Positions 456-63,182 of a DNA stretch of 64,000 bases are shown here, piece by piece. Position 1 is the stretch's first letter, and the number at the start of each line of letters is the position of its first letter. Both the position numbers and the translations under genes were made by a program. Origin of the DNA: Bacteroidota bacterium (lineage in GTDB: Bacteria > Bacteroidota > Bacteroidia > Flavobacteriales > Flavobacteriaceae); NCBI GenBank assembly GCA_039027495.1, contig JBCCKH010000019.1, positions 16,921 through 80,920 of the forward strand. The letters are read 5' to 3'. Below the pieces are notes generated by a model, which saw only the letters and a program-made list of their open reading frames with translations, did not search any database and had not been told where the DNA came from.

Positions 456-538
456 TTCTTTTTCAACTTCGTAAGAAACGACATTCAGAAAGGAGTGACA
501 TTTTTTACCTTTGGGGTCTAAACAGTAAACTCCATACT

Positions 539-4145: not shown

Positions 4146-6332
4146 ATGGACTATCCAAACTGGACCAAAACGCATTGCGGGCACCTTTTATTTTTCTGCG
4201 CTTTTGTCTTTTTTACATTCGGGTTTGCCCAAGAAATACATGTGTCATCTGTTGATGATGAACTTACCATTAAAGCGGATTTGTTCGCTGCAATAAAAGA
4301 CTTCAAATCTGAGAACGAAGTTACGCAAGCTAAGCTAGGTGTTTTGTTTTCGAATCACATGAAGTCTACTGAAAATGGTCGAGAGTTGGCGCTGGCTGAT
4401 TTGGGTGAAGACGGAACGCCACTTTTTTACACCACATACGCCAACATTTCCAGCTATGTTTCCAGAGCAAATTCCCTTTACACGGATGGGCTTTTGAATT
4501 TGGGATTGGATGGTGCAGGAATGCAGGTTGGCGTTTGGGATGCTGGCGTAGCGCTGAACTCCCACCAAGAATTCCAGAATCGGGTACGTTCTGGGGACGC
4601 TTCAGGTGATATTAGCAGCCATGCCACTTTAGTCACGGGCAATTTGGTGTCGACAGGGCTTAAACCTGATGCCAAAGGCGTTGCTTTTAAAGCCAACGCC
4701 ATCAGTCATGATTGGACGCGAGATAAAATAGAAGTCGCGGAAGCAGCTGCTCAAGGACTGCTGTTGAGCAACCATTCCTACGGGATTAAATCAGACCGTG
4801 TGCCGGATTGGTATTTCGGGTCCTATATCAAAGTTTCACAAGATTGGGATAAAATCATGTATAATGCGCCCTACTATCTTATGGTAACCGCGGCGGGCAA
4901 CGCACAACGTTCACGCGACAATGCATCGCCTATATTCGGACAAAGTGTAGATGGTTTTGATATGCTTTTGGGTTTTACAACAAGCAAAAATGGTATCACT
5001 GTCGGAGCCGCAAAAACAACTATCGGAAACCAAGGACAACTCAAACATGCAGATGTAAGTACCTATAGCAGCCTAGGACCGATTGACGACGGTCGCATCA
5101 AACCAGACTTGGTAGGAGACGGTGCTTCCATATTTTCAACAACCTCAAAAAACAATTCAAGCTACGGCACCTCAACGGGTACTTCGATGTCAGCGCCAGG
5201 AGTTACAGGAGCTCTGCTATTGCTACAGCAGTATGCCAAACAAAGCTTTGGCTCCTATGTAAGAGCGGCTACCATAAAAGGTTTGGCTTTACACACAGCT
5301 GATGATATAGGCGCAGCTGGACCAGATTACAAAATGGGATGGGGCGTCATGAACGCCATGAACGCTGCAAAAGTGATTCAGAACAACGGTTTTACATCAA
5401 TCATTGAAGAAAACACCTTGTTGGAAGGTGAGGAACATACCATCAACATTAAAGCGAACGGTAGCGAACTGTTGTTGATTTCCATTTCATGGACAGACCC
5501 CCAGGGCAACACGGTGAATTCAGGAATATTGAACGATCCTACCAAGGCCTTGGTCAACGATTTGGACATTCGTTTGGAAAAAAATGGAAAGGTCTTTCTG
5601 CCTTGGCGATTGAATCCAAAACAGGCAGCCGCCTCCGCTACCAGAGGAGACAATTCGGTTGATCCCTTTGAGCGCATAGATGTAGCCAATGCGCAAGGAG
5701 AATATACCTTGGTTATTTCCCATAAAGGAAGTCTTACCACTAGTGAGCAAGCCTATTCGCTAATCGTTTCGGGAGCAAAAGTCAATCAGTGTTCTGCTCA
5801 AGTTCCGGAGGAAGTGGGATTGGAATCCGCTTCGGAAAGTGAATTGTCAATTAGTTGGAAAGGCGTTCCCGATACGCTATATGAGGTGCAGTTCAAAGCA
5901 GCATCTGACGACTACTGGACTTCTTATTTTACTGAAGATGGCACACAGCAATTTGAAAATTTGGAAAGCGAAACCACCTATAACTTTCGCATCCGTTCCA
6001 TTTGTACGGAAAGTGTGGTCTCAGAATTTTCTGAAGAGTACACGTTTATTTTTAACGGAGAAAATACGGTTTTAGAAGAGAATAGTGTCTTCTCCATCGA
6101 TGACAATGTGCTTGAGATTGAAGTATTTCCTAACCCTGCTTCCGATTGGGTGACCATAAATTCAGCATATGCGCCAAATGCCATGTTCGCTTTGGTTTCC
6201 ACTTCAGGAAACACGTTACGCATGGGAAGCGTAACCGAAAAAATCAATGTTTCGGATTTAGCCTCAGGATTATACATTCTAATGGTGCAGGACCTCGAAG
6301 GTATCCGAAGCACCAAATTCTATAAAAAATAA
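4146..6332 (+). CDS. S8 (subtilisin-like) serine peptidase with FN3 domain and T9SS C-terminal sorting domain
   Basis: VWDAG (Asp), SHATLV (His), GTSMSAPG (Ser) triad; FN3-like YEVQFK..YNFRIRSIC; IEVFPNPASD...LASGLYILMV..KFYKK CTD. Confidence 0.92.
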   Translation: MDYPNWTKTHCGHLLFFCAFVFFTFGFAQEIHVSSVDDELTIKADLFAAIKDFKSENEVTQAKLGVLFSNHMKSTENGRELALADLGEDGTPLFYTTYANISSYVSRANSLYTDGLLNLGLDGAGMQVGVWDAGVALNSHQEFQNRVRSGDASGDISSHATLVTGNLVSTGLKPDAKGVAFKANAISHDWTRDKIEVAEAAAQGLLLSNHSYGIKSDRVPDWYFGSYIKVSQDWDKIMYNAPYYLMVTAAGNAQRSRDNASPIFGQSVDGFDMLLGFTTSKNGITVGAAKTTIGNQGQLKHADVSTYSSLGPIDDGRIKPDLVGDGASIFSTTSKNNSSYGTSTGTSMSAPGVTGALLLLQQYAKQSFGSYVRAATIKGLALHTADDIGAAGPDYKMGWGVMNAMNAAKVIQNNGFTSIIEENTLLEGEEHTINIKANGSELLLISISWTDPQGNTVNSGILNDPTKALVNDLDIRLEKNGKVFLPWRLNPKQAAASATRGDNSVDPFERIDVANAQGEYTLVISHKGSLTTSEQAYSLIVSGAKVNQCSAQVPEEVGLESASESELSISWKGVPDTLYEVQFKAASDDYWTSYFTEDGTQQFENLESETTYNFRIRSICTESVVSEFSEEYTFIFNGENTVLEENSVFSIDDNVLEIEVFPNPASDWVTINSAYAPNAMFALVSTSGNTLRMGSVTEKINVSDLASGLYILMVQDLEGIRSTKFYKK

Positions 6333-6412
6333 GACAATGCGATACGCTGAAATCGATATGAAACTTGTTGAAACGGAGTCCAAGCTTCCGCTTCGGAACC
6401 ATATTCGCTTTC

Positions 6413-7129
6413 TTAGAGTTTTTTTATTTCGGTTTCGGCAATAAGGGATTCGTTTCGCATTCGAAGGAACACTTGGGCCGTGGTAATTACATCCAATTCG
6501 CAATAGGTTACGATTCGGTCCAAATCGTTGTCATCATAAAAAACGGAGCGAACCATGCTGCCGTCCATATCTTCTTTTGGGGAGGGAATCTCCAAAACAT
6601 GGGCCAATAGCTTTAAAGAGGTGAAATTTTTATAATCACCGAATTTCCAGAGTTCCATAGTATCCAAATGGGGTACTTCCCAAGGTTTTTTACCAAATAA
6701 GTCCAGCTTGAAAGGTAAATCCAATCGGTTGATGAGCATTCTGCGTGCGATGTAGGGAAAGTCGAACTCCTTTCCGTTATGTGCGCAAAGCAAAAACTTG
6801 GGATGTTGATAATGTTCATCCAACAGGTTCTTGAACGCTTGCAAAAGCGTTTTCTCCTCACCATAAAAGGATTTGACCCTAAAATCCCGTGAATCTGCTT
6901 TCAGGTTGAAATACCCCACGGAAATACAGATAATTTTCCCGAACTCGGACCATATGCCCGCATTTTCATAGAATGCATCGGCTTCAATCTGGTCTTTGCG
7001 CTGGTATCGCGTTTTATGTTCCCAGAGGCTCTGGGTAAGTTCATCAACATCCGCATAGGAGGGAAGTTGTGGTACCGTTTCAATATCCAGAAATAGGATA
7101 TGGTCGAGTGGAATTTTTTGTATCCTCAT
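6413..7129 (-). CDS. PolB-like 3'-5' exonuclease family protein
   Basis: LFLDIETV (ExoI), AHNGKEFDFPY (ExoII), YCELDV (ExoIII). Confidence 0.88.
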   Translation of the reverse strand: MRIQKIPLDHILFLDIETVPQLPSYADVDELTQSLWEHKTRYQRKDQIEADAFYENAGIWSEFGKIICISVGYFNLKADSRDFRVKSFYGEEKTLLQAFKNLLDEHYQHPKFLLCAHNGKEFDFPYIARRMLINRLDLPFKLDLFGKKPWEVPHLDTMELWKFGDYKNFTSLKLLAHVLEIPSPKEDMDGSMVRSVFYDDNDLDRIVTYCELDVITTAQVFLRMRNESLIAETEIKKL

Positions 7130-10943: not shown

Positions 10944-10971
10944 TTAGTTTTTAAGCTTACAGCTTTAAGCT
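10944..10971 (-). repeat. Four phased heptamers at the 3' end of the four-helix-bundle gene
   Basis: Minus strand: AGCTTAA AGCTGTA AGCTTAA AAACTAA; the first unit contains the stop codon. Confidence 0.7.
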
Positions 10972-11330
10972 CTAAGTGATGCTTTTATTGTTCGAATTAA
11001 AGCAGCTAACATTTTTTTGATTTCGTCAATTTCAGAAATGAGTTTCTTCGCATTCTTGGATTCTATAAAACCGAGCTCTGAAGAAACCAATAATAAATAG
11101 TCCAATTCGTGAGTAGAGCCAGAAGCTATGTAAAGAAATCGAACTAATTCTTTTTCAGTTTCTCTCCCACAACCTTCTGCACTATTAGTAGGGATTGAAA
11201 TGGAAGCTCTTTGAATTTGAGAAATCAAGTTGAACTGTTCAGACTTGGGAAACCCCTGGGTTATCTCATACATTTTAAAAACATATTGATGCGATTTTTG
11301 CCAGACTTTGTAATTCTTATAATTGACCAT
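10965..11330 (-). CDS. Four helix bundle protein (TIGR02436 / 23S-IVP / Avd-like)
   Basis: YKVWQKSH..FPKSEQFNLISQIQRASISIPTNSAEGCGR..RFLYIASGSTHEL signature. Confidence 0.9.
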   Translation of the reverse strand: MVNYKNYKVWQKSHQYVFKMYEITQGFPKSEQFNLISQIQRASISIPTNSAEGCGRETEKELVRFLYIASGSTHELDYLLLVSSELGFIESKNAKKLISEIDEIKKMLAALIRTIKASLRA

Positions 11331-31678: not shown

Positions 31679-34600
31679 ATGAAAGTATGCCTAGTAAAGG
31701 CCAGCTCAATACTGCTGGCTTTGGTTTTTATGCCTTTGTCTACGGAGGCACAACGTAGAAAAAACACTTCAACTTCACCCGAGTATCCCGAAGAACTCTA
31801 TTCCAGTTTGAGTTATCGCTTGGTAGGACCCTTTCGAGGAGGCCGCTCCGCGGCAGTTACCGGTGTGCCAGGTGAACCCAACCTATTTTATTTTGGAGCC
31901 ACTGGAGGTGGCGTTTGGAAGACCACAGATGGTGGACGCTCATGGGGTAATATTTCTGACGGATTTTTTGGAGGAAGTATTGGCTCGGTTGAGGTGGCTA
32001 AAAGTGATCCAAATGTGATTTACGCGGGAGGAGGGGAGAAAACGGTTCGTGGCAATGTTTCTTCTGGCTACGGTATTTGGAAGACCGTTGATGCTGGAAA
32101 AACATGGATGCAAATGGGCCTTGAAAAAAGCCGACACATTCCTAGAATAAAAGTCCACCCCACCAACCATGATATTGTGTATGCCGCAGTAATGGGGAAT
32201 ATTTACAAACCCACCCAAGAAAGAGGCATCTATAAAAGCACTGATGGGGGCAAGAGTTGGAAAAAAGTACTGTTTGTCAATGACCAAGCTGGTGCAGTGG
32301 ACCTTACTTTGGACCCCAGCAACCCGAGAATTCTATACGCTTCTACTTGGCGCGTGCAACGAACCCCCTACAGCCTAAGTAGTGGAGGAGATGGTTCTGC
32401 ACTTTGGAAAAGTACCGACAGCGGGGAAACATGGAAAGAAATCTCTAAGAACGAAGGTTTTCCAAAAGATACCCTAGGGATTATTGGGGTAACCGTTTCG
32501 CCAGTTAATTCCGAAAGGGTTTGGGCCATAGTTGAAAACAAAGAAAAAGGCGGATTGTACCGGTCGGATGACGGCGGCACAAAATGGACCCAAGTCAATA
32601 AAGAACGAAAATTGCGCCAACGGGCTTGGTATTATACCCGGGTTTATGCCGACACCGAAGATGCGGATAAAGTATATGTGCTCAATGTTCGCTATCATCG
32701 GAGCACTGATGGGGGTAAAACGTTCAAAACGTTCAACGCACCACACGGAGACCACCATGATTTATGGATAGCACCTGAGAATTCCAATCGGATGATTATT
32801 GGAGATGACGGAGGAGCGCAAGTAAGTTATGATGGTGGTGAAACCTGGAGTACTTACTACAATCAACCCACCGCTCAGTTTTATAGGGTGACCACTGATA
32901 ATGCTTTTCCGTATCGCATTTACGTAGCGCAACAAGACAACAGCACCATTCGCATCAACCATCGCAGCGACGGTGGGTCCATTGATGAAGACGACTGGGA
33001 ACCTACCGCTGGCGGGGAAAGTGCCCATATCGCCATTGACCCAACCAATAATGACATTGTGTATGGTGGGAGTTACGGTGGGTTCTTGACTAGGGTGAAT
33101 CATGAGAACAAGACGGTTCGCGGCATCAATGTTTGGCCCGATAATCCCATGGGGTACGGCGCCGAAGGCATGAAGTATCGTTTTCAATGGAATTTCCCCA
33201 TCATTTTCAGCAAACACGACCCGAAAAAGCTCTATACCTTTTCCAATCATGTGCATTTGAGCACCAATGAAGGTCAAAGTTGGAAGTTGTTGAGCGATGA
33301 TTTGACGCGTAACGACCCCTCTCGATTGGTATCCAGTGGTGGACCCATAACCCAAGACAATACTGGGGTTGAGTATTACTGCACCATTTTCGCTGCAAAC
33401 GAAAGCCCTTTAAAGGAAGGCTTGTTATGGGTGGGTAGTGATGATGGGCTTATTCATATTACCAAAGATGGCGGACAAAACTGGGAAAACATTACCCCTG
33501 CCAGCCTTCCTGAATGGAGCATGATTAACAGTATTGAACCTTCCGCTTTTGACGAGGGTACTTGTTACGTAGCCGCAACACGCTATAAACTGGGAGATTT
33601 CAAACCCTATTTGTACAAAACCACAGACTACGGAAAAACATGGACCAAAATCACGAACGGAATCAATAATGAACATTTTACCCGAGTGCTTCGAGAAGAC
33701 CCAAAACGAAAAGGGTTGCTCTATGCTGGAACTGAGACCGGAATGTATGTTTCGTTCAATGACGGAAGTAGCTGGCAAAAATTCCAGTTGAACCTTCCGA
33801 TTGTACCCGTTACTGATTTGGCGTTAAAAGACAACAATCTCGTGGTGGCTACCCAAGGTCGTAGCGTTTGGGTAATTGATGACTTAACGGTATTGCATCA
33901 GTTGGAAGCTTCCCAAAAAACTTCGAATGCAATTTTATTCCAACCGAAGGATAGTTATCGCACCAAAGGGCGTGCGGCCAAAAAGCCCTCCAAAACGGAA
34001 GGACAAAATCATCCCAATGGTGTGGTGACCCATTATTATTTAAAAAGCTTCGATAAAGAAAAGGATACCATCCAATTGACCTATTTGTCGATGCAAGGAG
34101 ATACGTTGGCCAAGTATAGCTCTTATGCCAAGGAAAAGAAAAGTAAACTTACCGGTATCAAAAAAGGCGGCAACACCCATGTTTGGGATACTCGCGGCAA
34201 GGGAGCTGAAAAATTGAAGGGCATGATTTTGTGGTGGGCCAATTTGAATGGAGCAAAATCCGTTCCAGGGAATTATAAAGTTGCCTTGAATGTGAATGGA
34301 AGCGACCAATCTGAAACGTTCAAGATTTTGCCTGATCCAAGAGCTGAGGTTTCGGTGGCGGATATGCAAAAACAATACGATTTTATTGCTGACATTAACG
34401 AAACCGTAGACAAGGCGCATCAATCCATCAAAAAGATTCGAAAAATAAATACCAAGCTCGATGCTTTCATGAAACAATACAAAGACAATGAGCAAACCAA
34501 AAGCTTGGTGGAAAAGGCCAAAACCATGAAAGAAGGGTTTGGCGCGATTGAAAAAGCACTGTATCAGACCAAAAACCGCAGTAATCAAGATCCGCTGAAT

Positions 34601-34819
34601 TTTCCGATACGGTTGACGAACAAGTTGGCGCATTTGAGTAGTTTGGTTTCCATTGATGATTTCCCACCAACGGAACAAGACATCGAAGTGAAAAATGAGC
34701 TTTCTGGAAAAATCAAAAGTGAGCTGACCAAATTCGACACCATGATTGATAAAGAAATTGAAGTATTCAACACCGAATTCAATCAATTGGGATTGGATTA
34801 TTTGTCTGTTGAAGAGTAA
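31679..34819 (+). CDS. VPS10/sortilin-like BNR-repeat glycosyl hydrolase
   Basis: GPFRGGRS, many SxDxGxTW Asp-boxes, HGDHH, C-terminal helical extension. Confidence 0.88.
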   Translation: MKVCLVKASSILLALVFMPLSTEAQRRKNTSTSPEYPEELYSSLSYRLVGPFRGGRSAAVTGVPGEPNLFYFGATGGGVWKTTDGGRSWGNISDGFFGGSIGSVEVAKSDPNVIYAGGGEKTVRGNVSSGYGIWKTVDAGKTWMQMGLEKSRHIPRIKVHPTNHDIVYAAVMGNIYKPTQERGIYKSTDGGKSWKKVLFVNDQAGAVDLTLDPSNPRILYASTWRVQRTPYSLSSGGDGSALWKSTDSGETWKEISKNEGFPKDTLGIIGVTVSPVNSERVWAIVENKEKGGLYRSDDGGTKWTQVNKERKLRQRAWYYTRVYADTEDADKVYVLNVRYHRSTDGGKTFKTFNAPHGDHHDLWIAPENSNRMIIGDDGGAQVSYDGGETWSTYYNQPTAQFYRVTTDNAFPYRIYVAQQDNSTIRINHRSDGGSIDEDDWEPTAGGESAHIAIDPTNNDIVYGGSYGGFLTRVNHENKTVRGINVWPDNPMGYGAEGMKYRFQWNFPIIFSKHDPKKLYTFSNHVHLSTNEGQSWKLLSDDLTRNDPSRLVSSGGPITQDNTGVEYYCTIFAANESPLKEGLLWVGSDDGLIHITKDGGQNWENITPASLPEWSMINSIEPSAFDEGTCYVAATRYKLGDFKPYLYKTTDYGKTWTKITNGINNEHFTRVLREDPKRKGLLYAGTETGMYVSFNDGSSWQKFQLNLPIVPVTDLALKDNNLVVATQGRSVWVIDDLTVLHQLEASQKTSNAILFQPKDSYRTKGRAAKKPSKTEGQNHPNGVVTHYYLKSFDKEKDTIQLTYLSMQGDTLAKYSSYAKEKKSKLTGIKKGGNTHVWDTRGKGAEKLKGMILWWANLNGAKSVPGNYKVALNVNGSDQSETFKILPDPRAEVSVADMQKQYDFIADINETVDKAHQSIKKIRKINTKLDAFMKQYKDNEQTKSLVEKAKTMKEGFGAIEKALYQTKNRSNQDPLNFPIRLTNKLAHLSSLVSIDDFPPTEQDIEVKNELSGKIKSELTKFDTMIDKEIEVFNTEFNQLGLDYLSVEE

Positions 34820-37794: not shown

Positions 37795-39342
37795 ATGAAA
37801 AGACCTATACTCCTATTATTCTTATTTGTTGCGTTGGTGGGTACCGCGCAAAATATGCCTATCTCCTATGATTTTGGAGAAAAATTCAATGACCGGTATC
37901 GCTATTCCAATTTATTGACCATTGACAACGATGGCAATGGCGGCTACATTTTGGTGCGCGCCTATTTCCAGGGACTTGTGCTAAGACCTAAAGGGTACTT
38001 TATCGAACATTACGATAAAGACCTGAATTTGATAGATGAGTACAACTACAAATTACGCAACAAGGATTTCATTGCAGGTTTTTTGAAGAATGGGCAATTG
38101 AATTTGTTGTTTTTAGAATACAATTATACCAGCAGCCGTTATGAATATTGGGTGCATACCAGTCCAATTATTGATTTTAATTTCCGACCCAAAAAATTAG
38201 TGTCGATTCAATCCGAAGAAGTTCGAAACCCTGTCGGGAAGAACTATTACAACCGTGATTTTTCGAGAGGGTTCACTACGGCCATTCTTTTCAATCAAGA
38301 AAAGACGGGTTTCATCATCAGTACGCATCATAAAAAAGGCAAATCCAACAAACACCTTATCCACCTTTATGGAACGGATTTGAGCAAAAAGTGGGAATAT
38401 GACTTTTCCGAAAGTGTAGAAGAGAAAAATTACGCTTTTGAAAATCTGGCAATTTCCAGCGATTTGAGTTCTGCCTACATCATTGGAAAAGCCTATTTCA
38501 AAAAGAAACGTTTTCGGGTAGACGAACGTAAATTCCAATATGAACTCATCAAATTGGACGGCCAAAGTAGCCTCACCCAACGTTTTGATGACCCTGGAAA
38601 GTACTCCGAAAGCCTTTATCCGATTTTAACAAAAGAAAGACTGGTCTGTACAGGATTTTATGCAGATCGTCGAGATAATCGATACAATGGTATTGGGTTT
38701 TTTGAGTTGAACCCCAACACGCTTGAAGTCCAAACCAAAAAATACAGTCCTTTCTCGCAACAATTCATGCAAGATAAGTTCGGTCGAGAAGACGATAAGG
38801 AAATCAAAAACCTCGTTTTCAAAAATGTGGAAATTGGTTCCCAAGGCGAAATCATGTTCAACGCCGAAGAATACTTTGTATCCGAAAGCATGCAGTCCAC
38901 GGGAATGGGTCAAAGGGTTCATGTAACCCGATACCACCATAACGATATTGTGAGCGCCAAGCTGGATGCCTCAGGCGATATGGTTTGGGTGCGAAACATC
39001 AACAAGACTGAAGTAACCCAAGGGGATGGCGCCTATGCTTCCTATAGTTCTTTCGTTAAAGATGGCAACACCTATTTCTTTATTTGTACCGCAGCTGAGA
39101 ATCCGCAACTGGTCAACAACGAACGATTGATTTTCAAGCAAGGGCTTAGCCGAAATCGAAACGTCTTTTTAATTGCCTTGGACAAAGAAGGTAAAATGGA
39201 GTTTGAGAAAATCATTGACGACAAAGAAGCCCGCTTACCCTTGATGGTATCCATGCCGCTCAAAAACCCTTCTGAAGACAATATGTTGTTTTATGCCAAA
39301 CGCGGCACGAAAAAGCAGTTGGTGAAGGTCGCTTTCAACTAA
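37795..39342 (+). CDS. Secreted hypothetical protein
   Basis: Signal peptide; long open frame, beta-rich; no family recognised. Confidence 0.75.
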   Translation: MKRPILLLFLFVALVGTAQNMPISYDFGEKFNDRYRYSNLLTIDNDGNGGYILVRAYFQGLVLRPKGYFIEHYDKDLNLIDEYNYKLRNKDFIAGFLKNGQLNLLFLEYNYTSSRYEYWVHTSPIIDFNFRPKKLVSIQSEEVRNPVGKNYYNRDFSRGFTTAILFNQEKTGFIISTHHKKGKSNKHLIHLYGTDLSKKWEYDFSESVEEKNYAFENLAISSDLSSAYIIGKAYFKKKRFRVDERKFQYELIKLDGQSSLTQRFDDPGKYSESLYPILTKERLVCTGFYADRRDNRYNGIGFFELNPNTLEVQTKKYSPFSQQFMQDKFGREDDKEIKNLVFKNVEIGSQGEIMFNAEEYFVSESMQSTGMGQRVHVTRYHHNDIVSAKLDASGDMVWVRNINKTEVTQGDGAYASYSSFVKDGNTYFFICTAAENPQLVNNERLIFKQGLSRNRNVFLIALDKEGKMEFEKIIDDKEARLPLMVSMPLKNPSEDNMLFYAKRGTKKQLVKVAFN

Positions 39343-39362
39343 TAGAAGTTTTTGTTTTTGTT

Positions 39363-39653
39363 GTCATTCCTGCGAAAGCAGGAATCCTTTTCTCAACATT
39401 TGGATTACTTCATCCCAGCCTGCCCGACCGCTGACTGGGTTTCTGGGTCTCTTTCCAACAAGCCTAAGATGCTGAAACCAGTTCAGCATGACCGCATCTT
39501 TTTTATGTCACCCTGAACTACTTGTCCGACCGAAGGCGGGGTTTCAGGGTCCTTTTCCAACGAGTTCAAGATGCTGAATCAAGTTCAGCATGATCGCATC
39601 TTTTTTACATCACCCTGAACGCCTTGCCCGACCGCAGGCGGGGTTTCAGGTTC
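39363..39653. repeat. Tandem REP-doublet array (about 102-bp period)
   Basis: GTCATTCCTGCGAAAGCAGGAATC, then alternating GTCACCCTGAA..TTCAGGGTC and AGATGCTGAA..TTCAGCATGAC hairpins; AGATGCTGAA starts at 39467 and 39569. Confidence 0.9.
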
Positions 39654-39771
39654 TTTTCTTATCAACTCAAACCGCAGTTCCCTAAATCCATAAGGGTCAA
39701 CAATCAATTCACATACCCAGGCCGTAGGGGAATTAGCTAGTTTCTCACGTTAAATCTAAAATTTTTTCGCG

Positions 39772-40950
39772 ATGAAATTTCTAAAACTATGTTATGTAAT
39801 TTTTGGAGGAGCCTTAATGTTGCTAACCTCCTGTTCTGACGGGGAAGACGGACAGAATGGCTTGCCTGGGGCGGACGGCTTGAGCTGTTGGGACGCCAAT
39901 AATAATGGGAATGGCGACCCTGAAGAGGACCTTAACCAAGACGGAAACTTTAATGCTCTTGACTGTGTAGGGGCGAATGGTGCGAATGGAATAAATGGTG
40001 CTAATGGAGTAGACGGTGCCAATGGCACGGATGGCCTAAGCTGTTGGGACACCAATGGTAATGGAGTTGCTGATACTGCAGAAGATATTAATCAAGATGG
40101 AAATTTCAATACCTTGGATTGTCAGGGCACTAATAATGGTGATGGTATGGATGGCCTAAGTTGCTGGGACACGAATGGCAACGGTGTTGGCGACGCTGAA
40201 GAAGATAAAAATAATGATGGAAATTTTGATGCACAAGACTGTCAAGGTCAAGATGGATTAGATGGAGAAGATGGATTAAATTGTTGGGATACGAATGGGA
40301 ACGGTCTGGGTGATGCAGAAGAAGATATAAATGAAGATGGCAATTTTGATACCCTAGACTGTCAGGGTCAAGACGGTGCAGATGGTCAGGATGGTGCAGA
40401 CGGTACAGATGGTCAGGATGGTGCAGACGGTACAGATGGTCAGGATGGTGCAGACGGTACAGATGGTCAGGACGGTACAGATGGTCAGGATGGTGCAGAC
40501 GGTGCAGATGGTCAGGATGGTGCAGACGGTGTAGATGGAAATGCCAATGTTCAGCAATTTGAGTACGATTTGGAGGAATTTGCAGACTATTCGTTTTTAA
40601 CTTTGGATTTACCTGACGCTATTGTTACTCCAGAGAACTATGCTTATCTATTTTACATTCAGCATAATATCGGGAATCTTATTTATTCTATTCCTGGACC
40701 TTTATTTGATAATCAAATATATGCGCAGGTATACGTTAGTTTTAATGCAGAAAATATTAGTGTTGAATTTTATAATACGTCGGATAACACAGATGCTAAT
40801 ATTGCTCAGGGTGACTACCTTAAAGTTTTAGTAGTAGCAATAGAGCTTAATAATGGCTCAAAAAACACGGAAAACCTTTTGCAGCAATTAAAAGATTCTG
40901 GAATTGATGTTACGGATTATGAACAAGTAGCTGAGTATTTTGGTCTTTAG
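39772..40950 (+). CDS. Collagen-like surface lipoprotein with four Cys-closed DxNxNG repeats
   Basis: Lipobox LTSC; CWDxNxNG..EDxNxDGNFxxxDC four times; about 20 Gly-X-Y triplets; globular C-terminus. Confidence 0.85.
   Translation: MKFLKLCYVIFGGALMLLTSCSDGEDGQNGLPGADGLSCWDANNNGNGDPEEDLNQDGNFNALDCVGANGANGINGANGVDGANGTDGLSCWDTNGNGVADTAEDINQDGNFNTLDCQGTNNGDGMDGLSCWDTNGNGVGDAEEDKNNDGNFDAQDCQGQDGLDGEDGLNCWDTNGNGLGDAEEDINEDGNFDTLDCQGQDGADGQDGADGTDGQDGADGTDGQDGADGTDGQDGTDGQDGADGADGQDGADGVDGNANVQQFEYDLEEFADYSFLTLDLPDAIVTPENYAYLFYIQHNIGNLIYSIPGPLFDNQIYAQVYVSFNAENISVEFYNTSDNTDANIAQGDYLKVLVVAIELNNGSKNTENLLQQLKDSGIDVTDYEQVAEYFGL
40384..40464 (+). repeat. Three perfect 27-bp tandem repeats encoding GQDGADGTD
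   Basis: ggtcaggatggtgcagacggtacagat three times, followed by degenerate copies to about 40530. Confidence 0.95.
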
Positions 40951-40974
40951 AATAAGGGAAAAGACATCTAAAGG

Positions 40975-41004
40975 AAAAAGACCGGGTTGGCCCGGTCTTT
41001 TTTT
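40975..41004 (+). terminator. Intrinsic terminator
   Basis: AAAAAGACCGG-gttgg-CCCGGTCTTTTTTT. Confidence 0.85.
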
Positions 41005-41062
41005 AAATAGGAACATTTTTCTCTATGGCCTTAATTGCGAAAGCTTTTATAAGGTCAGACTG

Positions 41063-41227
41063 GTCACACTGGTTTCGCTGAAACTTTAGTCAAAGCGCAG
41101 TCGAAGTCCATCTGCAAGAGTTATTTAAGAAGCCCAAGATGCTGAATCAAGTTCAGCATGACATATGAAGGAAGTCTGTTTCGTCACCCTGAATTTCCTG
41201 CCCGACCGCAGGCGGGGCTCAGGGTCT
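41063..41227. repeat. REP-like hairpin cluster
   Basis: GTCACACTG..AGCGCAGTCGAAG, AGATGCTGAATCAAGTTCAGCATGAC (41137-41162), GTCACCCTGAA[..cctgcccgaccgcaggcggg..]TCAGGGTCT. Confidence 0.88.
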
Positions 41228-41314
41228 ATTTCAATCTATAGATACACCTATTCTTCTCAGTGATAAGGACTTTAACGTTTTACAACGCAACGTTCTGCAA
41301 CCCCTTCCGTCTTT

Positions 41315-41788
41315 ATGAAAAATAACAACAGAATGAAGAGAAAATTTCTTACCCCAGTTTTAGCTTTGGCCTTCCTCCTTTTCTTGTCCTGTAATGACGA
41401 CGACAACCAAACCGACACGAACACCCTAGCGGGAGAATGGCGCATAACCGCTATAAGCAATTCTGACAGCCCCCTTGGGCCTATTTTAGAACCCGAAGCA
41501 GGGGAAGAGATTTCCATTCAATTCCAAAACAACGGACAATTTTCAGGGACAACCTCAATCAATGCGTTCAATGGTGATAGCAGTACCACCTCAGATGAAC
41601 TCTTCATCAATGACTTTATTTCTACTGAGGCGCTTGACACCACCTTTGGCCTTGCTTTTTACCAAGCCCTATTTGAAAGTAGTAATGAAAATGCCGGCGC
41701 TTCGGTATTCAGTATGGTAGCTGTAGACGATAATCGTATCAATTTGGAATACAACGATTTCAAATTTATGAGCATAGAGCGCAAGTAG
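41315..41788 (+). CDS. META-domain lipoprotein
   Basis: Lipobox FLSC plus DDD; LAGEWRIT, FSGTTSINAFNG, FISTEA. Start may be 41333. Confidence 0.75.
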   Translation: MKNNNRMKRKFLTPVLALAFLLFLSCNDDDNQTDTNTLAGEWRITAISNSDSPLGPILEPEAGEEISIQFQNNGQFSGTTSINAFNGDSSTTSDELFINDFISTEALDTTFGLAFYQALFESSNENAGASVFSMVAVDDNRINLEYNDFKFMSIERK

Positions 41789-41790
41789 AA

Positions 41791-41826
41791 ATTGGAAATA
41801 ATCCTTAAATTTGGATTATTTCCAAT
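41791..41826. promoter_or_regulatory. Twin GGA-N5-TCC boxes forming a 14-bp inverted repeat; candidate Bacteroidota SOS operator
   Basis: GGAaataaTCC at 41794-41804 and GGAttattTCC at 41813-41823, immediately before the radical SAM start codon. Confidence 0.65.
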
Positions 41827-41829
41827 AAT

Positions 41830-42903
41830 ATGCGTTCCAAAGACCTGAAAAAAGGTCGCGGTGCTCAAAAGAATCCCCCAAATCGGTTTTTAGAAAACGT
41901 CTACGAGGTTCGGGATGATTTTTTAGAATACTGTCGACAAGAGGGCGAAACTCCCGAAAATACCAAAACCCAGTACATACCGGTTTTTCCGAAAACCATA
42001 GTCAATCGTGTAGACAGTCCTGACGTGGGTATGGACTATTCCATGAACCCATACCAGGGCTGTGAGCACGGTTGTATTTATTGCTACGCCCGAAACTCCC
42101 ATGAGTTTTGGGGTTATAGTGCCGGGCTCGATTTTGAACGGAAAATATTGGTCAAAAAAAATGCCCCGGAACTGCTCGAAAAACTGTTGAAGAAAAAGAC
42201 CTGGCAAGCCGCCACCATTGTCCTTTCCGGAAATACCGATTGCTACCAGCCCGCCGAACAAAAGTTCGAAATTACCCGAAAATGTTTAGAGATTTTTTTG
42301 AAGTACCGTCATCCTGTGGGCATCATCACCAAGAACGCGACCATACTTCGGGATTTGGATATCCTTAGGGAGCTTCAAGCGAACAACTTGGTTGGCGTCA
42401 ACGTTTCAGTAACGAGTTTATCTGAAAAAACACGTCGGATTCTAGAGCCTCGAACCGCTTCGATATCCAAACGATTAAAAACCATTCAAACCCTTTCCAG
42501 GCATAATATTCCTGTGAATGCGATGTTGGCACCAATGATTCCAGGCATCAACAGCCACGAGCTTTTGAGTTTGGCGAAAGCCACATCAGCCCACGGTGCC
42601 GTTTCCTTTGGGTTTACTGTAGTTCGGTTGAACGGTGCCATTGGCCAAATCTTTAAAGATTGGATTGAAAAAGCCCTTCCCAGCAAGGCCGAAAAAGTAT
42701 TGCATTTGATTCAGCAGTGTCACGGTGGCAGCATCAACAATAGCGAATTTGGGGTTCGTAACCGTGGTCAAGGTCAGGTCGCGCAACAAATTCATGATAT
42801 GGCACGATTGGCCAAGCATAAATACTTTAAAGGGAAACAGTTTCCGCCTCTAAACAAAGCGTTGCATGCCATTTACAAGGATGGCCAAACACGACTTTTC
42901 TAA
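41830..42903 (+). CDS. PA0069-family radical SAM protein (SplB-like)
   Basis: SMNPYQGCEHGCIYCYAR (CxxxCxxC), SGNTDCYQPAE, ILEPRTAS, C-terminal QTRLF. Confidence 0.93.
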   Translation: MRSKDLKKGRGAQKNPPNRFLENVYEVRDDFLEYCRQEGETPENTKTQYIPVFPKTIVNRVDSPDVGMDYSMNPYQGCEHGCIYCYARNSHEFWGYSAGLDFERKILVKKNAPELLEKLLKKKTWQAATIVLSGNTDCYQPAEQKFEITRKCLEIFLKYRHPVGIITKNATILRDLDILRELQANNLVGVNVSVTSLSEKTRRILEPRTASISKRLKTIQTLSRHNIPVNAMLAPMIPGINSHELLSLAKATSAHGAVSFGFTVVRLNGAIGQIFKDWIEKALPSKAEKVLHLIQQCHGGSINNSEFGVRNRGQGQVAQQIHDMARLAKHKYFKGKQFPPLNKALHAIYKDGQTRLF

Positions 42904-42947
42904 TTTGTTGCGCTGATTCCTTTTAGGATTTCTCTCCCATGAGCTTA

Positions 42948-43184
42948 AGATGCTGAATCCCCGCCTGCGGTCGGGCAGGCAGTTGAGCATGACCTTTCTT
43001 TGTTAACTCTGTACTTATTGAAGATTCTTCAACTTTTTTTGATTCAATATTAAATTGACGTCGGACATCACCTTTTTCTGTCACCCTGAATTTCCTGCCC
43101 GACGTTCAGGCGGGATTTCAGGGTCTTTATACAGTACGAACTCTTTACATCATTCCTGCGAACGCGTGCCACAACTCAGGAATC
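42948..43184. repeat. REP-like hairpin cluster with loop inserts
   Basis: AGATGCTGAATC[cccgcctgcggtcgggcaggc]AGTTGAGCATGAC; GTCACCCTGAA[..cctgcccgacgttcaggcggg..]TTCAGGGTCT; TCATTCCTGCG..CAGGAATC. Confidence 0.88.
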
Positions 43185-43223
43185 CCCTGTGATTTAAACA
43201 TTTTTAAATATTTTTAAAGAAAG

Positions 43224-43250
43224 TGTCCAATACGATGCGACGGTTTCGTC
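43224..43250 (+). promoter_or_regulatory. Candidate ECF sigma promoter TGTC..(16 nt)..CGTC upstream of the yciI-sigma operon
   Basis: TGTCCAA-tacgatgcgacggttt-CGTC resembles ECF41/ECF42 target promoters. Confidence 0.55.
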
Positions 43251-43304
43251 ATATAAATGAAAACGATGTTAAACCGTTCGTAAACGAACACAATCTTAAA
43301 ACCA

Positions 43305-43661
43305 ATGAGCAATTTTTTGTATTTATTTCGAGGTGGGGATGAGGCCTACCAAAAACTATCCCAAGAAGAACGACAAAACCATATGGAAGTTTGGGGTCAA
43401 TGGATGGAGAAACTCCAAGGAAAGGGCCATTTGTTGGATGGGCAACCCCTCGCCGAAGAAGGTATGGTAGTTCAAAATAGGGGCGAGGTGATAACCAATG
43501 GTCCGCATGCCGAGGGCGCGGAGCTGGTGGGAGGATACCTTATTATTTCCGCAAAGGATTTAGCCGAAGCAACGGAAATTTCCAAATCCTGTCCCATTTT
43601 TGATTATGATGGAAGTACAGTCGAGGTTCGTCCAATTCTATCGATGGAAGAACATATTTAA
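43305..43661 (+). CDS. YciI/DGPF-family protein
   Basis: ITNGPHAEGAELVGGYLIISAKDLAEATEI..CP..VEVRP. Confidence 0.88.
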   Translation: MSNFLYLFRGGDEAYQKLSQEERQNHMEVWGQWMEKLQGKGHLLDGQPLAEEGMVVQNRGEVITNGPHAEGAELVGGYLIISAKDLAEATEISKSCPIFDYDGSTVEVRPILSMEEHI

Positions 43662-58047: not shown

Positions 58048-60525
58048 ATGTTCGTAGTAAAAAGAGATGGAAAAAAGGAGCCGGTGATGTTCGATAAGAT
58101 CACCGCAAGGGTAAGAAAGTTATGTTATGGTCTAAATGGGTTGGTAGATCCAGTAAAGGTGACCATGCGCGTAATTGAAGGGCTTTATGATGGGGTAACT
58201 ACATCCGAATTGGATAACCTTGCCGCAGAGATTGCCGCGACCATGACCACAACCCACCCTGACTATGCCAAGCTCGCAGCACGTATCTCCATCTCGAACT
58301 TGCACAAAAACACCAAAAAGTCCTTCTCTGAAACCATGAAGGACCTCTACGAATATGTAAATCCACGAACCGGAAAAAAAGCACCATTGATTTCCGATGA
58401 GGTTTTCGAAGTGATCAGTAAAAACGCCGAAACCTTGGATTCAACCATTATCTACAACCGTGATTTTGGCTACGATTACTTTGGTTTCAAAACGCTTGAA
58501 CGTTCGTACTTGCTCAAAATCAATGGAAATATCGCTGAGCGACCACAGCATATGTTAATGCGAGTTGCCGTGGGAATACACTTGAATGACATGGATGCTG
58601 CAGTAGAGACCTATGAGTTGATGTCCAAAAAGTACTTTACACATGCTACGCCAACCCTTTTCAACTCTGGTACACCGAAACCGCAAATGTCTTCATGTTT
58701 CTTATTGGCAATGCGTGAAGACAGTATAGATGGCATTTATGATACTTTGAAACAAACCGCAAAGATTTCCCAGTCCGCTGGAGGTATCGGCCTTTCCATC
58801 CATAATGTCAGGGCTACAGGTTCGTACATTGCGGGAACAAACGGTACTTCCAATGGAATCGTGCCCATGTTGCGTGTATTTAATGACACAGCGCGTTATG
58901 TAGACCAAGGAGGAGGAAAGCGAAAAGGAAGCTTCGCGATTTATGTGGAGCCATGGCACGCAGATATTTATGACTTCTTGGATTTGAAAAAGAACCACGG
59001 AAAAGAAGAAATGCGAGCCCGTGACTTGTTCTACGCTATGTGGATTCCAGATTTGTTCATGAAGCGTGTTGAAGCCGACGCAGAATGGACTTTAATGTGT
59101 CCAAACGAGTGTACGGGACTTTTCGATTCGCATAGTGAAGAGTTTGAAGCACTTTACACAAAATACGAGGCTGAAGGAAAGGGAAGAAAAACTATCAAAG
59201 CTAGAGAGCTTTGGGAGAAAATCCTGGAATCCCAAATCGAGACGGGAACCCCTTATATGTTGTACAAGGACGCGGCCAACCGGAAGAGCAACCAGAAAAA
59301 TTTGGGTACCATTCGTTCATCGAACCTGTGTACTGAGATTTTGGAATATACCTCCCCCGATGAAATCGCGGTTTGTAATTTGGCATCCATAGCACTTCCT
59401 ATGTTCATTAAGAATGGTGCGTTTGACCACAAAGAATTGTTCAAGGTCACCAAACGGGTCACCAAGAACTTGAACCGGGTCATCGATAGGAATTACTACC
59501 CGGTAAAGGAGGCCGAAAATTCAAATATGCGTCACCGCCCCGTAGGACTTGGGGTGCAAGGTTTGGCTGATGCCTTTATTATGTTGCGTTTGCCCTTCAC
59601 CAGTGATGAAGCCAAAAAACTCAACCAAGAAATATTTGAGACCCTGTATTATGCCGCCGTTACCGCATCTATGGAATTAGCCAAAGATGAAGGCACCTAT
59701 TCCACCTACAAAGGTTCTCCAATCGCAAAAGGCGAATTTCAGCATAACCTTTGGGGGATAAAAGACGAAGAGCTTTCCGGAAGATGGGATTGGGCCAAGT
59801 TACGCAAGGACGTCAAAGCGCATGGCGTACGGAATTCACTATTGGTTGCACCTATGCCAACTGCGTCTACTTCCCAGATTTTAGGAAATAACGAATGTTT
59901 TGAACCCTATACGTCCAACATTTACACCAGACGTGTACTATCAGGAGAGTTCATCGTAGTCAACAAGCACCTTCTGGAAGATTTGGTATCTCTTGGACTT
60001 TGGAACGAGAACATGAAGCAAGAATTGATGCGTGCCAACGGTTCTATTCAGCATATTGAAATCATTCCTGAGGACATCAAGGAGTTGTATAAAACCGTTT
60101 GGGAGTTGAGCATGAAGGATATCATTGATATGAGCCGACACAGAGGCTACTTCATCGACCAAAGCCAATCATTGAATTTGTTCATGGAAAATGCCAACTA
60201 TTCCAAGTTGACGTCGATGCATTTTTACGCTTGGAAGAGTGGTTTGAAAACGGGAATGTACTATTTGAGGACAAAAGCTGCGGTAGATGCAATTAAATTC
60301 ACCTTGGACAATACTAAAAAGAAGGAAGTTCCCGTTAGTATAGCAGCAGAGGCCGAAGTTGCCGCTGCAGCACCCAAGGCAGCAGAAACACTGAATGTGG
60401 AAACAACGCCGGTAAGTCAGCAAGAGGTTGACATACAACCCATGACACCGGAAGAAATGAAAGAAATGATTGCACGTGCCAAAGAAGGCCAAGCAGACGA
60501 CGACTGCTTGATGTGCGGCTCATAG
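58048..60525 (+). CDS. nrdA: Class I ribonucleotide reductase alpha subunit with ATP cone
   Basis: VVKRDG ATP cone, [37 protein letters not shown]-terminal CxxC. Confidence 0.97.
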
Positions 60526-60675: not shown

Positions 60676-61326
60676 TTACAAAGACCAAGCTCTGTTTTGG
60701 GTTAAAGTCTCCGCATCATCACACGCAACATACTGCCCTGGAATAGGCAAATAGGCCAAAACCTCTTCTCCAATGTATTCCGTGTTTTTATATGACCAAA
60801 CCGTCATATCGCGAAGGGAATTGGCAAATGCGAAGCAAGCAATTTCATCATCCAACACTGCACTTCCTTGTTCTTCGATCGCCATAAAATAGTCTTCCAC
60901 GGCTTCTCCATGTTCCTTTTCCACGTCTTTGGTGCGTTTTTTAAGGTAGGTACTCAACAAAGGGGTAAAACCTTCCTCATCAACTTCTGCTAGTGTTTCC
61001 TTTTGGGTCTCGCTTAATACTTTGCCAAAAAACTTTTCCATGGTCATTTTCATGAAATCTTGATGTTCTTCAGGAAGCACTTCTTTCGCGAAGGTGTCAA
61101 TGAAAACGTGTATGTTCATTTCTGTGGCAGAAGGCGTATCGGTTTTGGGTAAAATCATATCCACTAACGTATGAATGGCTGTACCTTGGTCCTTAGTCAA
61201 AAACTCAGGAAACCAATCCAAAACTTTTTTACTGCTACAGCTCTGTACCAGATTCATAAGGGTGGGAGCGGCAACAGTGTACCCAAAGGCCATTCCCATA
61301 TTCTTGAGCGCTTTTCTTCTTTCCAT
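60676..61326 (-). CDS. Gluconate 2-dehydrogenase subunit 3-family protein, Tat lipoprotein
   Basis: MERRKALK..VQSC, MILPKTDTPSA, YLPIPGQY. Confidence 0.88.
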   Translation of the reverse strand: MERRKALKNMGMAFGYTVAAPTLMNLVQSCSSKKVLDWFPEFLTKDQGTAIHTLVDMILPKTDTPSATEMNIHVFIDTFAKEVLPEEHQDFMKMTMEKFFGKVLSETQKETLAEVDEEGFTPLLSTYLKKRTKDVEKEHGEAVEDYFMAIEEQGSAVLDDEIACFAFANSLRDMTVWSYKNTEYIGEEVLAYLPIPGQYVACDDAETLTQNRAWSL

Positions 61327-63044
61327 TATACGTTTCCTTTTTTAAGTTCTTGTGCAGCGTGATTTGCGGCTCTCGCCGTAAAGGCCATATAGGTTAGCGA
61401 TGGGTTTACACAACTTGCGGAAGTCATGAATGCCCCGTCGGTCACGTACACATTTTTACAAGCGTGTACTTGGTTGTATTCATTTACCACCGAGGTCTTA
61501 GGGTCACGACCCATACGGGCCGTTCCCATTTCATGAATGCCCAGCCCAATGGCGTAGGGTCTATCATACGGTTCAATGTCCCTAGCGCCAGATTTTTCCA
61601 GCATCTGAACGGCTTGGTCTTGCATATCCTTTCGCATGTTGATTTCGTTGTCCCTGATTTCCGCATCGAAGGTAACGGTCGGCAAGCCCCACTGGTCAAG
61701 CTTGTCATAATCCAACATCATCTTGTTGTCGTGATACGGAAGGATTTCACCGAAGGCCAGCATGTTCATGGTCCAGCCTCCAGGCTTCATTAAACCTTCT
61801 TTGAACTCCTTACCAAAAGAAGCTTCCGCTACAAGATTTTCATAATCGCCTCGAGCTGCACCTCCTTGATAACCATATCCGCGTGTGAAATCTTTCATAT
61901 CACTGGCGCCTCCTAGGTTTCGGAAACGGGGAATGTAAATGCCGTTGGGTTTTCGGCCTTTATAATATTTATCATCAAAACCATCCATTTTCCCTTGGGC
62001 ACCTACTAAAAAATGGTGGTCCATAATATTGTGTCCCAACTCTCCACTATCATTTCCTAATCCATTTTCGAAACGGTCAGACTTGGATTGCATCAAAATA
62101 CTGGTCGATGCTACGGCCGAAGCACACAAGAAAATCACTTTCGCCTTGAATTCAAAAGTCTCTTTGGTTACCCTATCAATAACTTTAACCCCAGTTGCTT
62201 TTTTGGTGTCCGGGTCATACATGATTTCATGAACGATGGAATCCGGACGCAAGGTCATATTCCCGGTCCTTTCCGCTGCAGGCAAGGTTGAGGAAAGACT
62301 ACTGAAGTAAGCGCCAAAAGGACACCCTCTTACGCAACGGTTTCTGAACTGGCAGCGAACCCTACCATCGCCCTCAAACTGTTTGTCACTGTTGATATGG
62401 GCGACGCGGCCTGCAGTAATGATTCTACCATCAAAATGTTCTGCTACTTTTCCTCGAACGTGGTCTTCTACACAATTGAGTTCCATCATGGGCTCGAATT
62501 GCCCATCAGGCAATTGGGGAAGCCCCAATAATTCACCGGAGATTCCAATATACGATTCTACTTTATCGTACCAAGGGGCAATATCTTTGTATCTCACGGG
62601 CCAATCAACGGCAACCCCTTCGTTGCCATTGGCGGCAAAGTCCATTTCACTCCAACGATAGCTATGTCGCCCCCACATAATAGAACGACCTCCTACATGA
62701 TAACCGCGCATCCAATCAAAGCGTTTTACCTCGTTGTACGGATGTTCTAGGTCATTGACGAACCAATGCTTTGACGGGGCTTTTACAGTGTATCCCGTTC
62801 TCGCTTGCTTTTCTTGTTTTTTCAAATCCTCCGCGGTCGGTTCGCCTGCATGGGGAAAATCCCAAGGGTCAAGATTTGCGGTCGGATAGTCCTCTCGGTG
62901 CTTTACCATACGTCCTCTTTCCAACACCAAAGTCTTGAGACCATTCTCACAGAGTTCTTTGGCCGCCCATCCACCACTGATGCCAGTGCCCACCACGATA
63001 GCATCATAAGATTCCTGCTCCTCGTTGTAATAAAACTTACTCAT
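61326..63044 (-). CDS. GMC-family oxidoreductase
   Basis: VGTGISGG FAD motif, VGGRSIMWGR, IHEMGTARMG, NPSLTYMA. Start reassigned to MSKFY. Confidence 0.95.
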   Translation of the reverse strand: MSKFYYNEEQESYDAIVVGTGISGGWAAKELCENGLKTLVLERGRMVKHREDYPTANLDPWDFPHAGEPTAEDLKKQEKQARTGYTVKAPSKHWFVNDLEHPYNEVKRFDWMRGYHVGGRSIMWGRHSYRWSEMDFAANGNEGVAVDWPVRYKDIAPWYDKVESYIGISGELLGLPQLPDGQFEPMMELNCVEDHVRGKVAEHFDGRIITAGRVAHINSDKQFEGDGRVRCQFRNRCVRGCPFGAYFSSLSSTLPAAERTGNMTLRPDSIVHEIMYDPDTKKATGVKVIDRVTKETFEFKAKVIFLCASAVASTSILMQSKSDRFENGLGNDSGELGHNIMDHHFLVGAQGKMDGFDDKYYKGRKPNGIYIPRFRNLGGASDMKDFTRGYGYQGGAARGDYENLVAEASFGKEFKEGLMKPGGWTMNMLAFGEILPYHDNKMMLDYDKLDQWGLPTVTFDAEIRDNEINMRKDMQDQAVQMLEKSGARDIEPYDRPYAIGLGIHEMGTARMGRDPKTSVVNEYNQVHACKNVYVTDGAFMTSASCVNPSLTYMAFTARAANHAAQELKKGNV

Positions 63045-63182
63045 GTATTGTGTTTGTTTAATCACTAAATGTATTAATTATTAAATTAATTTTCTACATT
63101 TAAACCCTGTGTTTGTTGAGAATTCCGTACTATAACGTTATAGTTTTTCTCAACTCTTCATAATTCATTAAAAACAACCTAA

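Follow-up and report, generated by a model that had tools for sequence, protein, structure and literature searches.

Small tagged hairpin units gained and lost at the loop tips of REP-like hairpins in Flavobacteriaceae and other low-GC genomes

The DNA analysed here, called the window throughout, is a stretch of 64,000 nucleotides from a metagenome-assembled genome (MAG) of a marine member of the Flavobacteriaceae (GenBank assembly GCA_039027495.1, contig JBCCKH010000019.1, positions 16,921 to 80,920 of the forward strand), which protein searches placed in a Flagellimonas/Muricauda-like clade represented by MAGs only. Its gene content is that of an ordinary chromosome and includes genes for heme biosynthesis, ribonucleotide reductase, two-component systems, a radical-SAM protein and a collagen-like repeat protein. 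Confined to four intergenic spacers (1-538, 39343-39771, 40951-41314 and 42904-43304) are the two kinds of sequence that form the subject of this work: small hairpins, which we call hosts, and tiny inserts (T1, T2 and T3) that occupy the loops of some of these hosts and are missing from others.

The hosts are intergenic hairpins of about 25 nt that resemble repetitive extragenic palindromic (REP) sequences and bacterial interspersed mosaic elements (BIMEs) and carry an unpaired 5′ GTCA tag (a few start with CGTCA). Their stems fall into families A (CACCCTGAA), B (CATGCTGAA), C (CATTCCGTA), D (CATTCCTGC) and F (C(A/G)ACCTGAA), to which we add E, where a conserved core, GAGCG-N-AGTCGAAG, lies between short covarying stems (CACT/AGTG, CATT/AATG, TGCT/AGCA and GACT/AGTC). 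The apical loop is 5 nt long in families A, B, C and F (CTTGA, TTTAT, CTGGT), and hosts A and B alternate in opposite orientation, as in BIMEs, with a period of 88-102 bp. Hairpins with the conserved core and variable stems of the E type are found at 355-405 and 41095-41109 of the window and, among the related loci (denoted by L numbers), at 6885-7020 of L113 and 7345-7500 of L111.

The inserts are of at least three types, ranging from 20 to 33 nt. T1 reads CCTGCCCGAC-N(1-6)-CAGGCGGG and is 20-23 nt long, with conserved arms and a centre that varies from 1 to 6 nt; T2, CCTGCCCTCCAATCCGGAGGG, has 21 nt and T3 has 33 nt. Inserts start with a 5′ tag, C(C/T)TG(C/T)CC, followed by a small hairpin of the CCC...GGG type, and T1 and T2 always stand after the third loop base of hosts A, B, C and F, on the GTCA strand and with no duplication of the target. 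The window has 10 copies of such units in its four spacers (Table 1), among them two of the exact T1 20-mer, CCTGCCCGACCGCAGGCGGG, and related loci have dozens; dinucleotide-preserving shuffles of the window gave 0 matches to the T1 or T2 pattern. An original prediction, made from the letters of the window, had described hairpins of about 21 nt set into the loops of REP hairpins, and all the copies and empty hosts that it listed are present, empty and filled hosts occurring together. The length of the T1 unit is, however, 20 nt (CCTG...GGG), as seen from the empty site AATTT/ATTTC of L064 (here and below a slash between sequences marks the junction) and from a 20+20 tandem of T1 in L042.

In single-stranded T1 and T2, a CCC..GGG stem folds behind an unpaired CCTG (T2, -6.0 kcal/mol, z -3.25), and a CYTG tag with a YCC..GGR hairpin is common to T1, T2 and a variant in L006, the stems themselves being different. 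The arms of T1, CCTGCCCG and CAGGCGGG, are not inverted repeats of each other. The earlier statement that all inserts are hairpins with a CCTG(C/T)CC end needs correction: T3 on its own folds unconvincingly (-2.7 kcal/mol, z -0.13), and the same loops also accept inserts without that end, namely a 24-nt GAGCG..AGTCGAAG hairpin and the 32-nt hairpin at 204-235. In relatives of the window, E-type units are nested inside E-type units.

To follow individual loops, we compared the window with L115 (95% nucleotide identity), L040/L118/L119, L117, L064/L017, the group of L063, L120, L121 and L122, and L011, L107, L111 and L113; L114 and L116 belong to the same assembly as the window. Relatives that bear exact empty sites differ from it by 5-13%. 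At the 43080-43125 site the window reads AATTT/T1-21/ATTTC (the number gives the length of the variant) and L064 reads AATTT/ATTTC, an exact difference of 21 nt with no duplication; the site is empty also in L063, L040 and L117. The site at 42949-42993 is filled in the window, L011, L040 and L117 and empty in L064, L063 and L120-L122, and that at 41183-41226 carries an identical T1 in L040, L063 and L064 and is empty in L117. The same was seen in alignments for the other types of insert: the loop at 62-107 has T2 in the window and is empty in L115 and L113, and the site at 355-405 has T3 in the window and L107 and is empty in L109. In one collinear module the loop at 146-170 was found in three states, empty (window), with T1-23 (L115) and with the 24-nt E-type hairpin (L113), and a single array of L040 has six host A hairpins, four of them empty, one with T1-20 and one with T1-21. 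The exact junctions at empty orthologous loops fix the unit boundaries of T1, T2 and T3, and the inserts are discrete units that are gained or lost precisely at the loop tip. The site-specificity proposed earlier is borne out by the junction alignments. The orientation of the units is constant relative to the GTCA tag except at two loci of one MAG (L014 and L035).

Outside the clade, we searched one genome per species (596 Gb) for the exact T1 20-mer and found it in 62 stretches. Inverted repeats of 5 bp or more flanked 32 of 50 matches in low-GC genomes versus 2 of 16 in high-GC ones. The latter, from Actinomycetota and Proteobacteria, were rejected as true T1, as they lie in coding-like DNA without a flanking hairpin and their number is at the level of chance (by our own estimate, not a computed value, a few to some tens of matches in GC-rich genomes over the whole scan). 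The low-GC copies sit at the tips of quite dissimilar hairpins, and exact T1 occurs there in at least 12 unrelated junction contexts, all in genomes of the Fibrobacteres-Chlorobi-Bacteroidetes (FCB) group: Melioribacter, Marinimicrobia, a MAG titled Deferribacteres, and Roseivirga and other Bacteroidota. Examples are GTCATTCTG/T1/AAAGAATC in the MAG titled 'uncultured Deferribacteres' (CAJVYQ01), GTCATCCTGAGTTCATC/T1/GAAGGATGA in Neomarinimicrobiota and GGCAGCGGAGTC/T1/GAAGCC in a Cyclobacteriaceae MAG. Among the carriers of T1 are the MAGs GCA_039180565, GCA_039815265, GCA_038532455 and GCA_039820925, CAJVYQ01 and Roseivirga OZ257241; an exact T1 is lacking in most cultured Flagellimonas. The left flanks of T1 include TTT, CTT, CTG, CTA, CGC, ATC, GTC, AGA, GAG and others. 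One T1 host in Marinimicrobia has a core similar to that of the E-type hairpins, GAGTTCATC/GAAGG.

In CAJVYQ01, T1 is a module of a palindromic repeat of about 150 bp that resembles a MITE (a miniature transposable element with inverted repeats). Of the 31 copies of this repeat that were seen, 29 have one T1, one has two exact T1 in tandem and one lacks T1 (GTCATTCTGT/AAGAATC); the second hairpin of one copy bears a T1-like 24-mer. A T1-like unit is also nested in the centre of a T1 in L030. Identical T1 units in 12 or more contexts whose flanks show no similarity are more than homology-guided copying can explain, and insertion independent of the flanks, together with horizontal spread, is required. 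One ancestral event spread by duplication only is excluded, the same 20-mer being found in numerous unrelated hosts and across phyla.

Conservation of this kind could also be expected of selected cis-elements, that is, sites for a protein or an RNA structure in the form of a bulged two-tier stem, with the empty hairpins as decayed copies or members of another functional class, and with repeat turnover giving the appearance of mobility. T1 is indeed conserved both at orthologous sites and across phyla, and the fold of the composite of host and insert has outer and inner stems with an asymmetric bulge on the 5′ side. We nevertheless regard this explanation as unlikely: copies decay freely (the units at 39419 and 39521 have 3 mismatches each), they stand in both orientations relative to flanking genes, and their presence differs at the same gene junctions among close relatives. 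Moreover, no Rfam family was matched either in a gathering-threshold scan of the window or in a permissive scan of 39300-43350, and a terminator scan did not single out the filled hairpins.

Within the clade, we arranged the loci by distances over two gene segments, with a rooting obtained separately, in the tree (L011,(window,(L040,(L117,(L064, L063 group))))), on which the direction of change could be read at the 42949-42993 site and at two sites of L117; the site at 43080-43125 is equally parsimonious both ways. On this tree the empty state of the 42949-42993 site is derived and represents one loss. The derived allele bears the canonical B loop TCAAG and not the excision product AAC/CAG, a form that exists elsewhere (39468-39492), so that substitution by a different B copy is the best reading of this loss. 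L117 has lost T1 from its last host A hairpin ahead of the META-domain gene, and the neighbouring B hairpin there has gained a near-copy of the genome's own downstream unit. Variants, moreover, track their hosts (A and B hold T1-20 and T1-21, C holds T1-23 and F holds T2), and two neighbouring host C hairpins of L115 have a private T1 variant in common. The copies at 39419, 39521 and 39623 lie in one 102-bp tandem array and hence represent one event followed by duplication, not independent insertions. The polarised events, the shared private variants and the association of variants with hosts thus indicate that turnover in the clade comes mostly from duplication and from non-reciprocal copying among hairpins of the same stem.

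These observations raise the question of whether any dedicated mobility is needed. Replication forks may stall at hairpins and switch templates, so that hairpins with shared stems swap loops (gene conversion) and, given a few bases of microhomology, a mini-hairpin is now and then copied into an unrelated loop; T1 would persist through the favouring of stable GC-rich mini-hairpins or through horizontal transfer of composite repeats. Such an account fits the association of variants with hosts, the private variants common to neighbouring copies in L115 and L117, the derived loss that restores TCAAG instead of AAC/CAG, and the fact that gains and losses are both seen and both seamless; CTG often precedes CCTG at the left junction, and no enzyme gene lies nearby. 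It does not readily fit the recurrence of an identical 20-mer across phyla and in 12 or more contexts that have no flank homology, nor a nearly constant orientation to GTCA in unrelated hosts, nor the exact T1-T1 tandem and the T1 within a T1. In addition, T1 stays exact while adjacent stems decay: at the orthologous site of the copy at 41197 it is identical at 20 of 20 positions in four genomes, and the adjacent host 3′ arm and loop vary, by eye, at about 5 of 14. We consider this account, the main rival to our own, possible but doubtful.

The reading that we put forward instead, and to which we give an even chance of being right, is that T1-T3 are very small non-autonomous mobile modules that spread in two tiers. 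In the first, tagged mini-hairpins would on rare occasions be inserted into the single-stranded tips of new, unrelated hairpins, across phyla as well; the likeliest agent of such founding insertions would be a structure-specific enzyme that acts in trans on single-stranded DNA (of the HUH/Y1 type, such as TnpA or a REP-associated tyrosine transposase, RAYT), or else horizontal transfer of composite repeats. In the second, units frequently spread and are lost through tandem duplication and amplification of larger repeats that contain the module, and through template switching or gene conversion, by which one hairpin is copied non-reciprocally into another with a shared stem. The second tier is what the sequences display; an enzyme, an intermediate in single-stranded form and the direction in which the founding events went we infer. 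HUH chemistry would fit because junctions are seamless, strand and orientation are specific and tandem copies occur. The more specific proposal that T1 is a 20-nt mobile unit common to several FCB-group phyla, put by an enzyme into single-stranded hairpin tips, we advance tentatively. Of the independent integrations originally predicted, the presence of T1 in many unrelated hosts and phyla stands, and much of the copy number is due instead to the tandem array, to amplification of the MITE-like repeat and to variants that follow their hosts. The units are discrete and their junctions seamless; the one polarised loss and the one gain resemble same-stem copying and not cut-and-paste.

Several points weigh against the two-tier reading. 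Each polarisable gain or loss within the clade is explicable by homology-guided copying. Elements of the IS200/IS605 family need two distinct end hairpins and a specific target of 4-5 nt beside the left end, and tandem copies are expected of them; no conserved target tetranucleotide flanks T1, and 20 nt is too short for two end hairpins. Covariation in support of T1's own fold is thin, with one compensatory pair (CCTA..TAGG). The loci from other phyla were chosen for their T1 content, which biases empty-to-filled ratios outside the clade. Neither the 64-kb window nor about 300 kb of sequence from close relatives yielded a candidate enzyme. Finally, the related sequences are all metagenome assemblies, in which repeats are prone to misassembly; that the pattern arose by chance resemblance or as an assembly artefact is nevertheless extremely improbable, given the lack of any match in the shuffles, the base-exact junctions and the recurrence of the same structures in many independent assemblies from different projects.

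The original prediction had suggested looking for a correlation with an HUH or GIY-YIG gene, and the window has no such gene. A Pfam search of nearly all long open reading frames (ORFs) of the window (37 ORFs, together with the labels on L114 and L116, the regions 31679-34819, 58048-60525 and 61326-63065 being outside its coverage) found no transposase, nuclease or reverse transcriptase in the window, only housekeeping genes. A scan for HUH/Y1 motifs combined with tblastn over 975 kb of DNA in total found a single Y1/HUH gene, at 6217-6654 of L007, which is not adjacent to T1. This gene, in a T1-rich MAG, encodes a subclass-1.2-like protein of 145 aa (DHLH...YIRNQKQHH) and lies (6060-6830) between direct repeats of about 150 bp that are full of small hairpins, in a REPtron-like layout. 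To our knowledge, Y1/HUH subclass 1.2 is restricted to Cyanobacteria and Bacteroidetes, and its standing as a candidate enzyme is one of purely taxonomic coincidence. Y1 subclasses 2.4 and 2.6, described as having 'atypical secondary structures', are also present in Bacteroidetes (Quentin 2018, PMC6006769). The possibility that T1 is what remains of a longer element, its footprint or its fused ends, was rejected, since no copies with only the left or only the right arm were found to bound a long insert. Viral contigs gave 0 matches for T1 and 0 for T2, and a plasmid collection contained nothing relevant to the array unit.

A route through RNA, in which a small hairpin RNA is reverse-transcribed and inserted at nicked loops, as has been proposed for some mitochondrial hairpin elements, would account for the absence of target duplication and for the uniform sequence across hosts, and genes for four-helix-bundle proteins similar to bAvd and 23S-IVP are variable cassettes in these genomes, a very indirect hint. 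There is, however, no reverse transcriptase in the window or the related loci, poly-A and template-end signatures are absent, and no master gene was found; we consider this route very unlikely.

That no named element behaves in this way, as first thought, does not hold, since the SDRs (small dispersed repeats) of the Nostocales are a close precedent. Elhai et al. reportedly described in 2008 SDR1-8 of Nostoc and other heterocystous cyanobacteria as hairpin units of about 21-27 nt that nest, that are present or absent at given loci and that have no known transposase. They are said to insert precisely at a fixed point of a short palindrome (the HIP1 octamer) or in heptamer tracts, and tiny mobile repeats have reportedly been known in cyanobacteria since that year with a mechanism still lacking. 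T1 (20-23 nt) and T2 (21 nt) are likewise dispersed, T3 at 33 nt being longer than the SDR range, and T1-T3 share with SDRs the fixed insertion point (here in the loop), the nesting (T1 in T1, the E-type hairpin in host C) and orthologous loci with and without the unit. They differ in occurring in the FCB group and not in Cyanobacteria, in having the apical loop of a GTCA hairpin as target in place of HIP1 octamers or heptamer tracts, and in that one T1 unit is identical to the letter across several phyla, the comparison being one of descriptions and not of SDR sequences. T1-T3 may thus be regarded, at best, as an analogue of SDRs. For SDR5, insertion within the HIP1 palindrome is on record (PMC4390886).

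REP sequences, BIMEs and paired REPs (REPINs) resemble the hosts, in that these are intergenic, imperfectly palindromic and 25 nt long, bear an unpaired tetranucleotide on the 5′ side and are arranged in inverted pairs and arrays. The coexistence within a REP family of simple loops and of long self-complementary ones has been described for E. coli (GTAG-3) and Bradyrhizobium (GTAG-14), the complex loops being treated there as variants and not as inserted units (Di Nocera 2013, PMC3733652); in our case the loop inserts are separable units with empty orthologous sites. The foot of a REP is GTAG or CGTC, whereas the hosts have GTCA and the inserts CCTG, and a search for a RAYT gene in the window and in about 300 kb of sequence from relatives was negative. 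Yeast mitochondrial GC clusters and the hairpin and double-hairpin elements of fungal and sponge mitochondria, for which DNA and RNA routes are debated (PMC4478555, PMC2800124), are similar in being small GC-rich palindromes in AT-rich spacers that are present or absent in close relatives, merge and shuffle, and change their loops while conserving their arms; they are, however, organellar, the yeast clusters have 30-50 nt and a putative AG target duplication, and there is no hairpin-tip rule. With IS200/IS605, which transpose as single strands by 'peel and paste', and with the miniature derivatives of that family, T1-T3 share seamless gain and loss without target duplication, hairpins and a fixed orientation to the target strand, but T1 is a single small hairpin with no conserved flanking tetranucleotide and no cognate tnpA was found. 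From MITEs of the DDE type T1 differs in lacking terminal inverted repeats and, at exact empty sites, target-site duplications. We found no account in the literature of such a system in Bacteroidota or the FCB group.

In its behaviour T1 resembles a mobile DNA unit that would be among the smallest known, and if it is indeed inserted by an enzyme it would be the smallest transposable unit known, with a new target rule of structure over sequence and a mechanism that might be common to T1 and cyanobacterial SDRs. T1-T3 add a second, phylogenetically distant system of tiny repeats, with clean empty and filled orthologues, a 20-nt unit, a simple loop-tip rule and a range of several phyla. REP-like hairpins are shown by this to be modular, their loops being hot spots where hairpins are built in and swapped and where spacers beside variable genes are remodelled; such remodelling could alter termination or mRNA stability. 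For annotation, the 'complex loops' of REP sequences may be separable inserts.

Table 1. Host hairpins and their inserts in the window (positions of the window; insert positions are given with the insert)
Host	Loop content	Positions	Strand	Remarks
C (GTCATTCCGTA..TACGGAATC)	T1 23-nt variant CCTGCCCGCCCGGTCAGGCGAGG	3-25	-	other host arm just outside the window start; full hairpin in L114
F (GTCGACCTGAA..TTCAGGTTC)	T2 at 76-96	62-107	+	
C	empty	146-170	-	loop CTTGA
D (GTCATTCCTGC..GCAGGAATC)	32-nt hairpin at 204-235	192-248	+	empty form at 39363-39387
C	E-type hairpin bearing further nested pieces	263-320	-	
E (GCTGAGCG/GAGTCGAAGC on the + strand)	33-nt T3 at 363-395	355-405	-	
F, degenerate	T2 variant CTTGCCCTCCAATCCAGAGGG at 428-448	418-458	+	
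D	empty	39363-39387	+	loop GAAA
B and A, 102-bp tandem array	filled host A and inverted empty host B per unit	39419-39658	+	2.3 copies; tandem repeat at 39421-39658
A, hairpins of the 102-bp array	T1 at 39419-39438 (decayed, 3 mismatches), 39521-39540 (3 mismatches) and 39623-39642 (1 mismatch)		+	
B, within the array	empty	39468-39492 and 39570-39594		
B (GTCATGCTGAA..TTCAGCATC)	empty	41138-41162	-	loop CTTGA
A (GTCACCCTGAA..CTCAGGGTC)	exact T1 at 41197-41216	41183-41226	+	
B	exact T1 at 42960-42979	42949-42993	-	
A	T1 21-nt variant CCTGCCCGACGTTCAGGCGGG at 43094-43114	43080-43125	+	
D, degenerate	16-nt loop filling	43149-43185	+	

Some variation was also seen in the genes and spacers around the hairpins. 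In the window, L063, L117 and L120, a unique spacer of 86 bp (42994-43079) downstream of the radical-SAM gene separates hairpin B from hairpin A; L064 and L040 lack it, and about 11 nt lie between their two hairpins. The gene for the collagen-like repeat protein (39772-40950), which has internal tandem repeats of 9 nt and 120 nt and hairpin arrays on both sides, is present in L040 and L120 and missing in L011 and L117 (L011 also lacks the META-domain gene), and the arrays around it may serve as recombination break points. A gene with TIG/Big_2 domains lies upstream of the DUF3078 gene in L111 (8396-9652), L113 (7990-9261) and L114 (5785-7260, upstream of the window start), with dense hairpin repeats at its borders, and is not found in L107 or L115.

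Genes of the 23S_rRNA_IVP or bAvd-like four-helix-bundle family (PF05635) were found in the window (10965-11330, minus strand), L107 (8780-9142), L111 (1946-2305), L113 (20427-20792) and L115 (8505-8867). They are present or absent at differing gene junctions among close relatives (that between sufB and sufC, for example, is occupied in L111 only) and behave like mobile cassettes of about 450 bp, flanked by short word repeats that are unrelated to the hairpins studied here.

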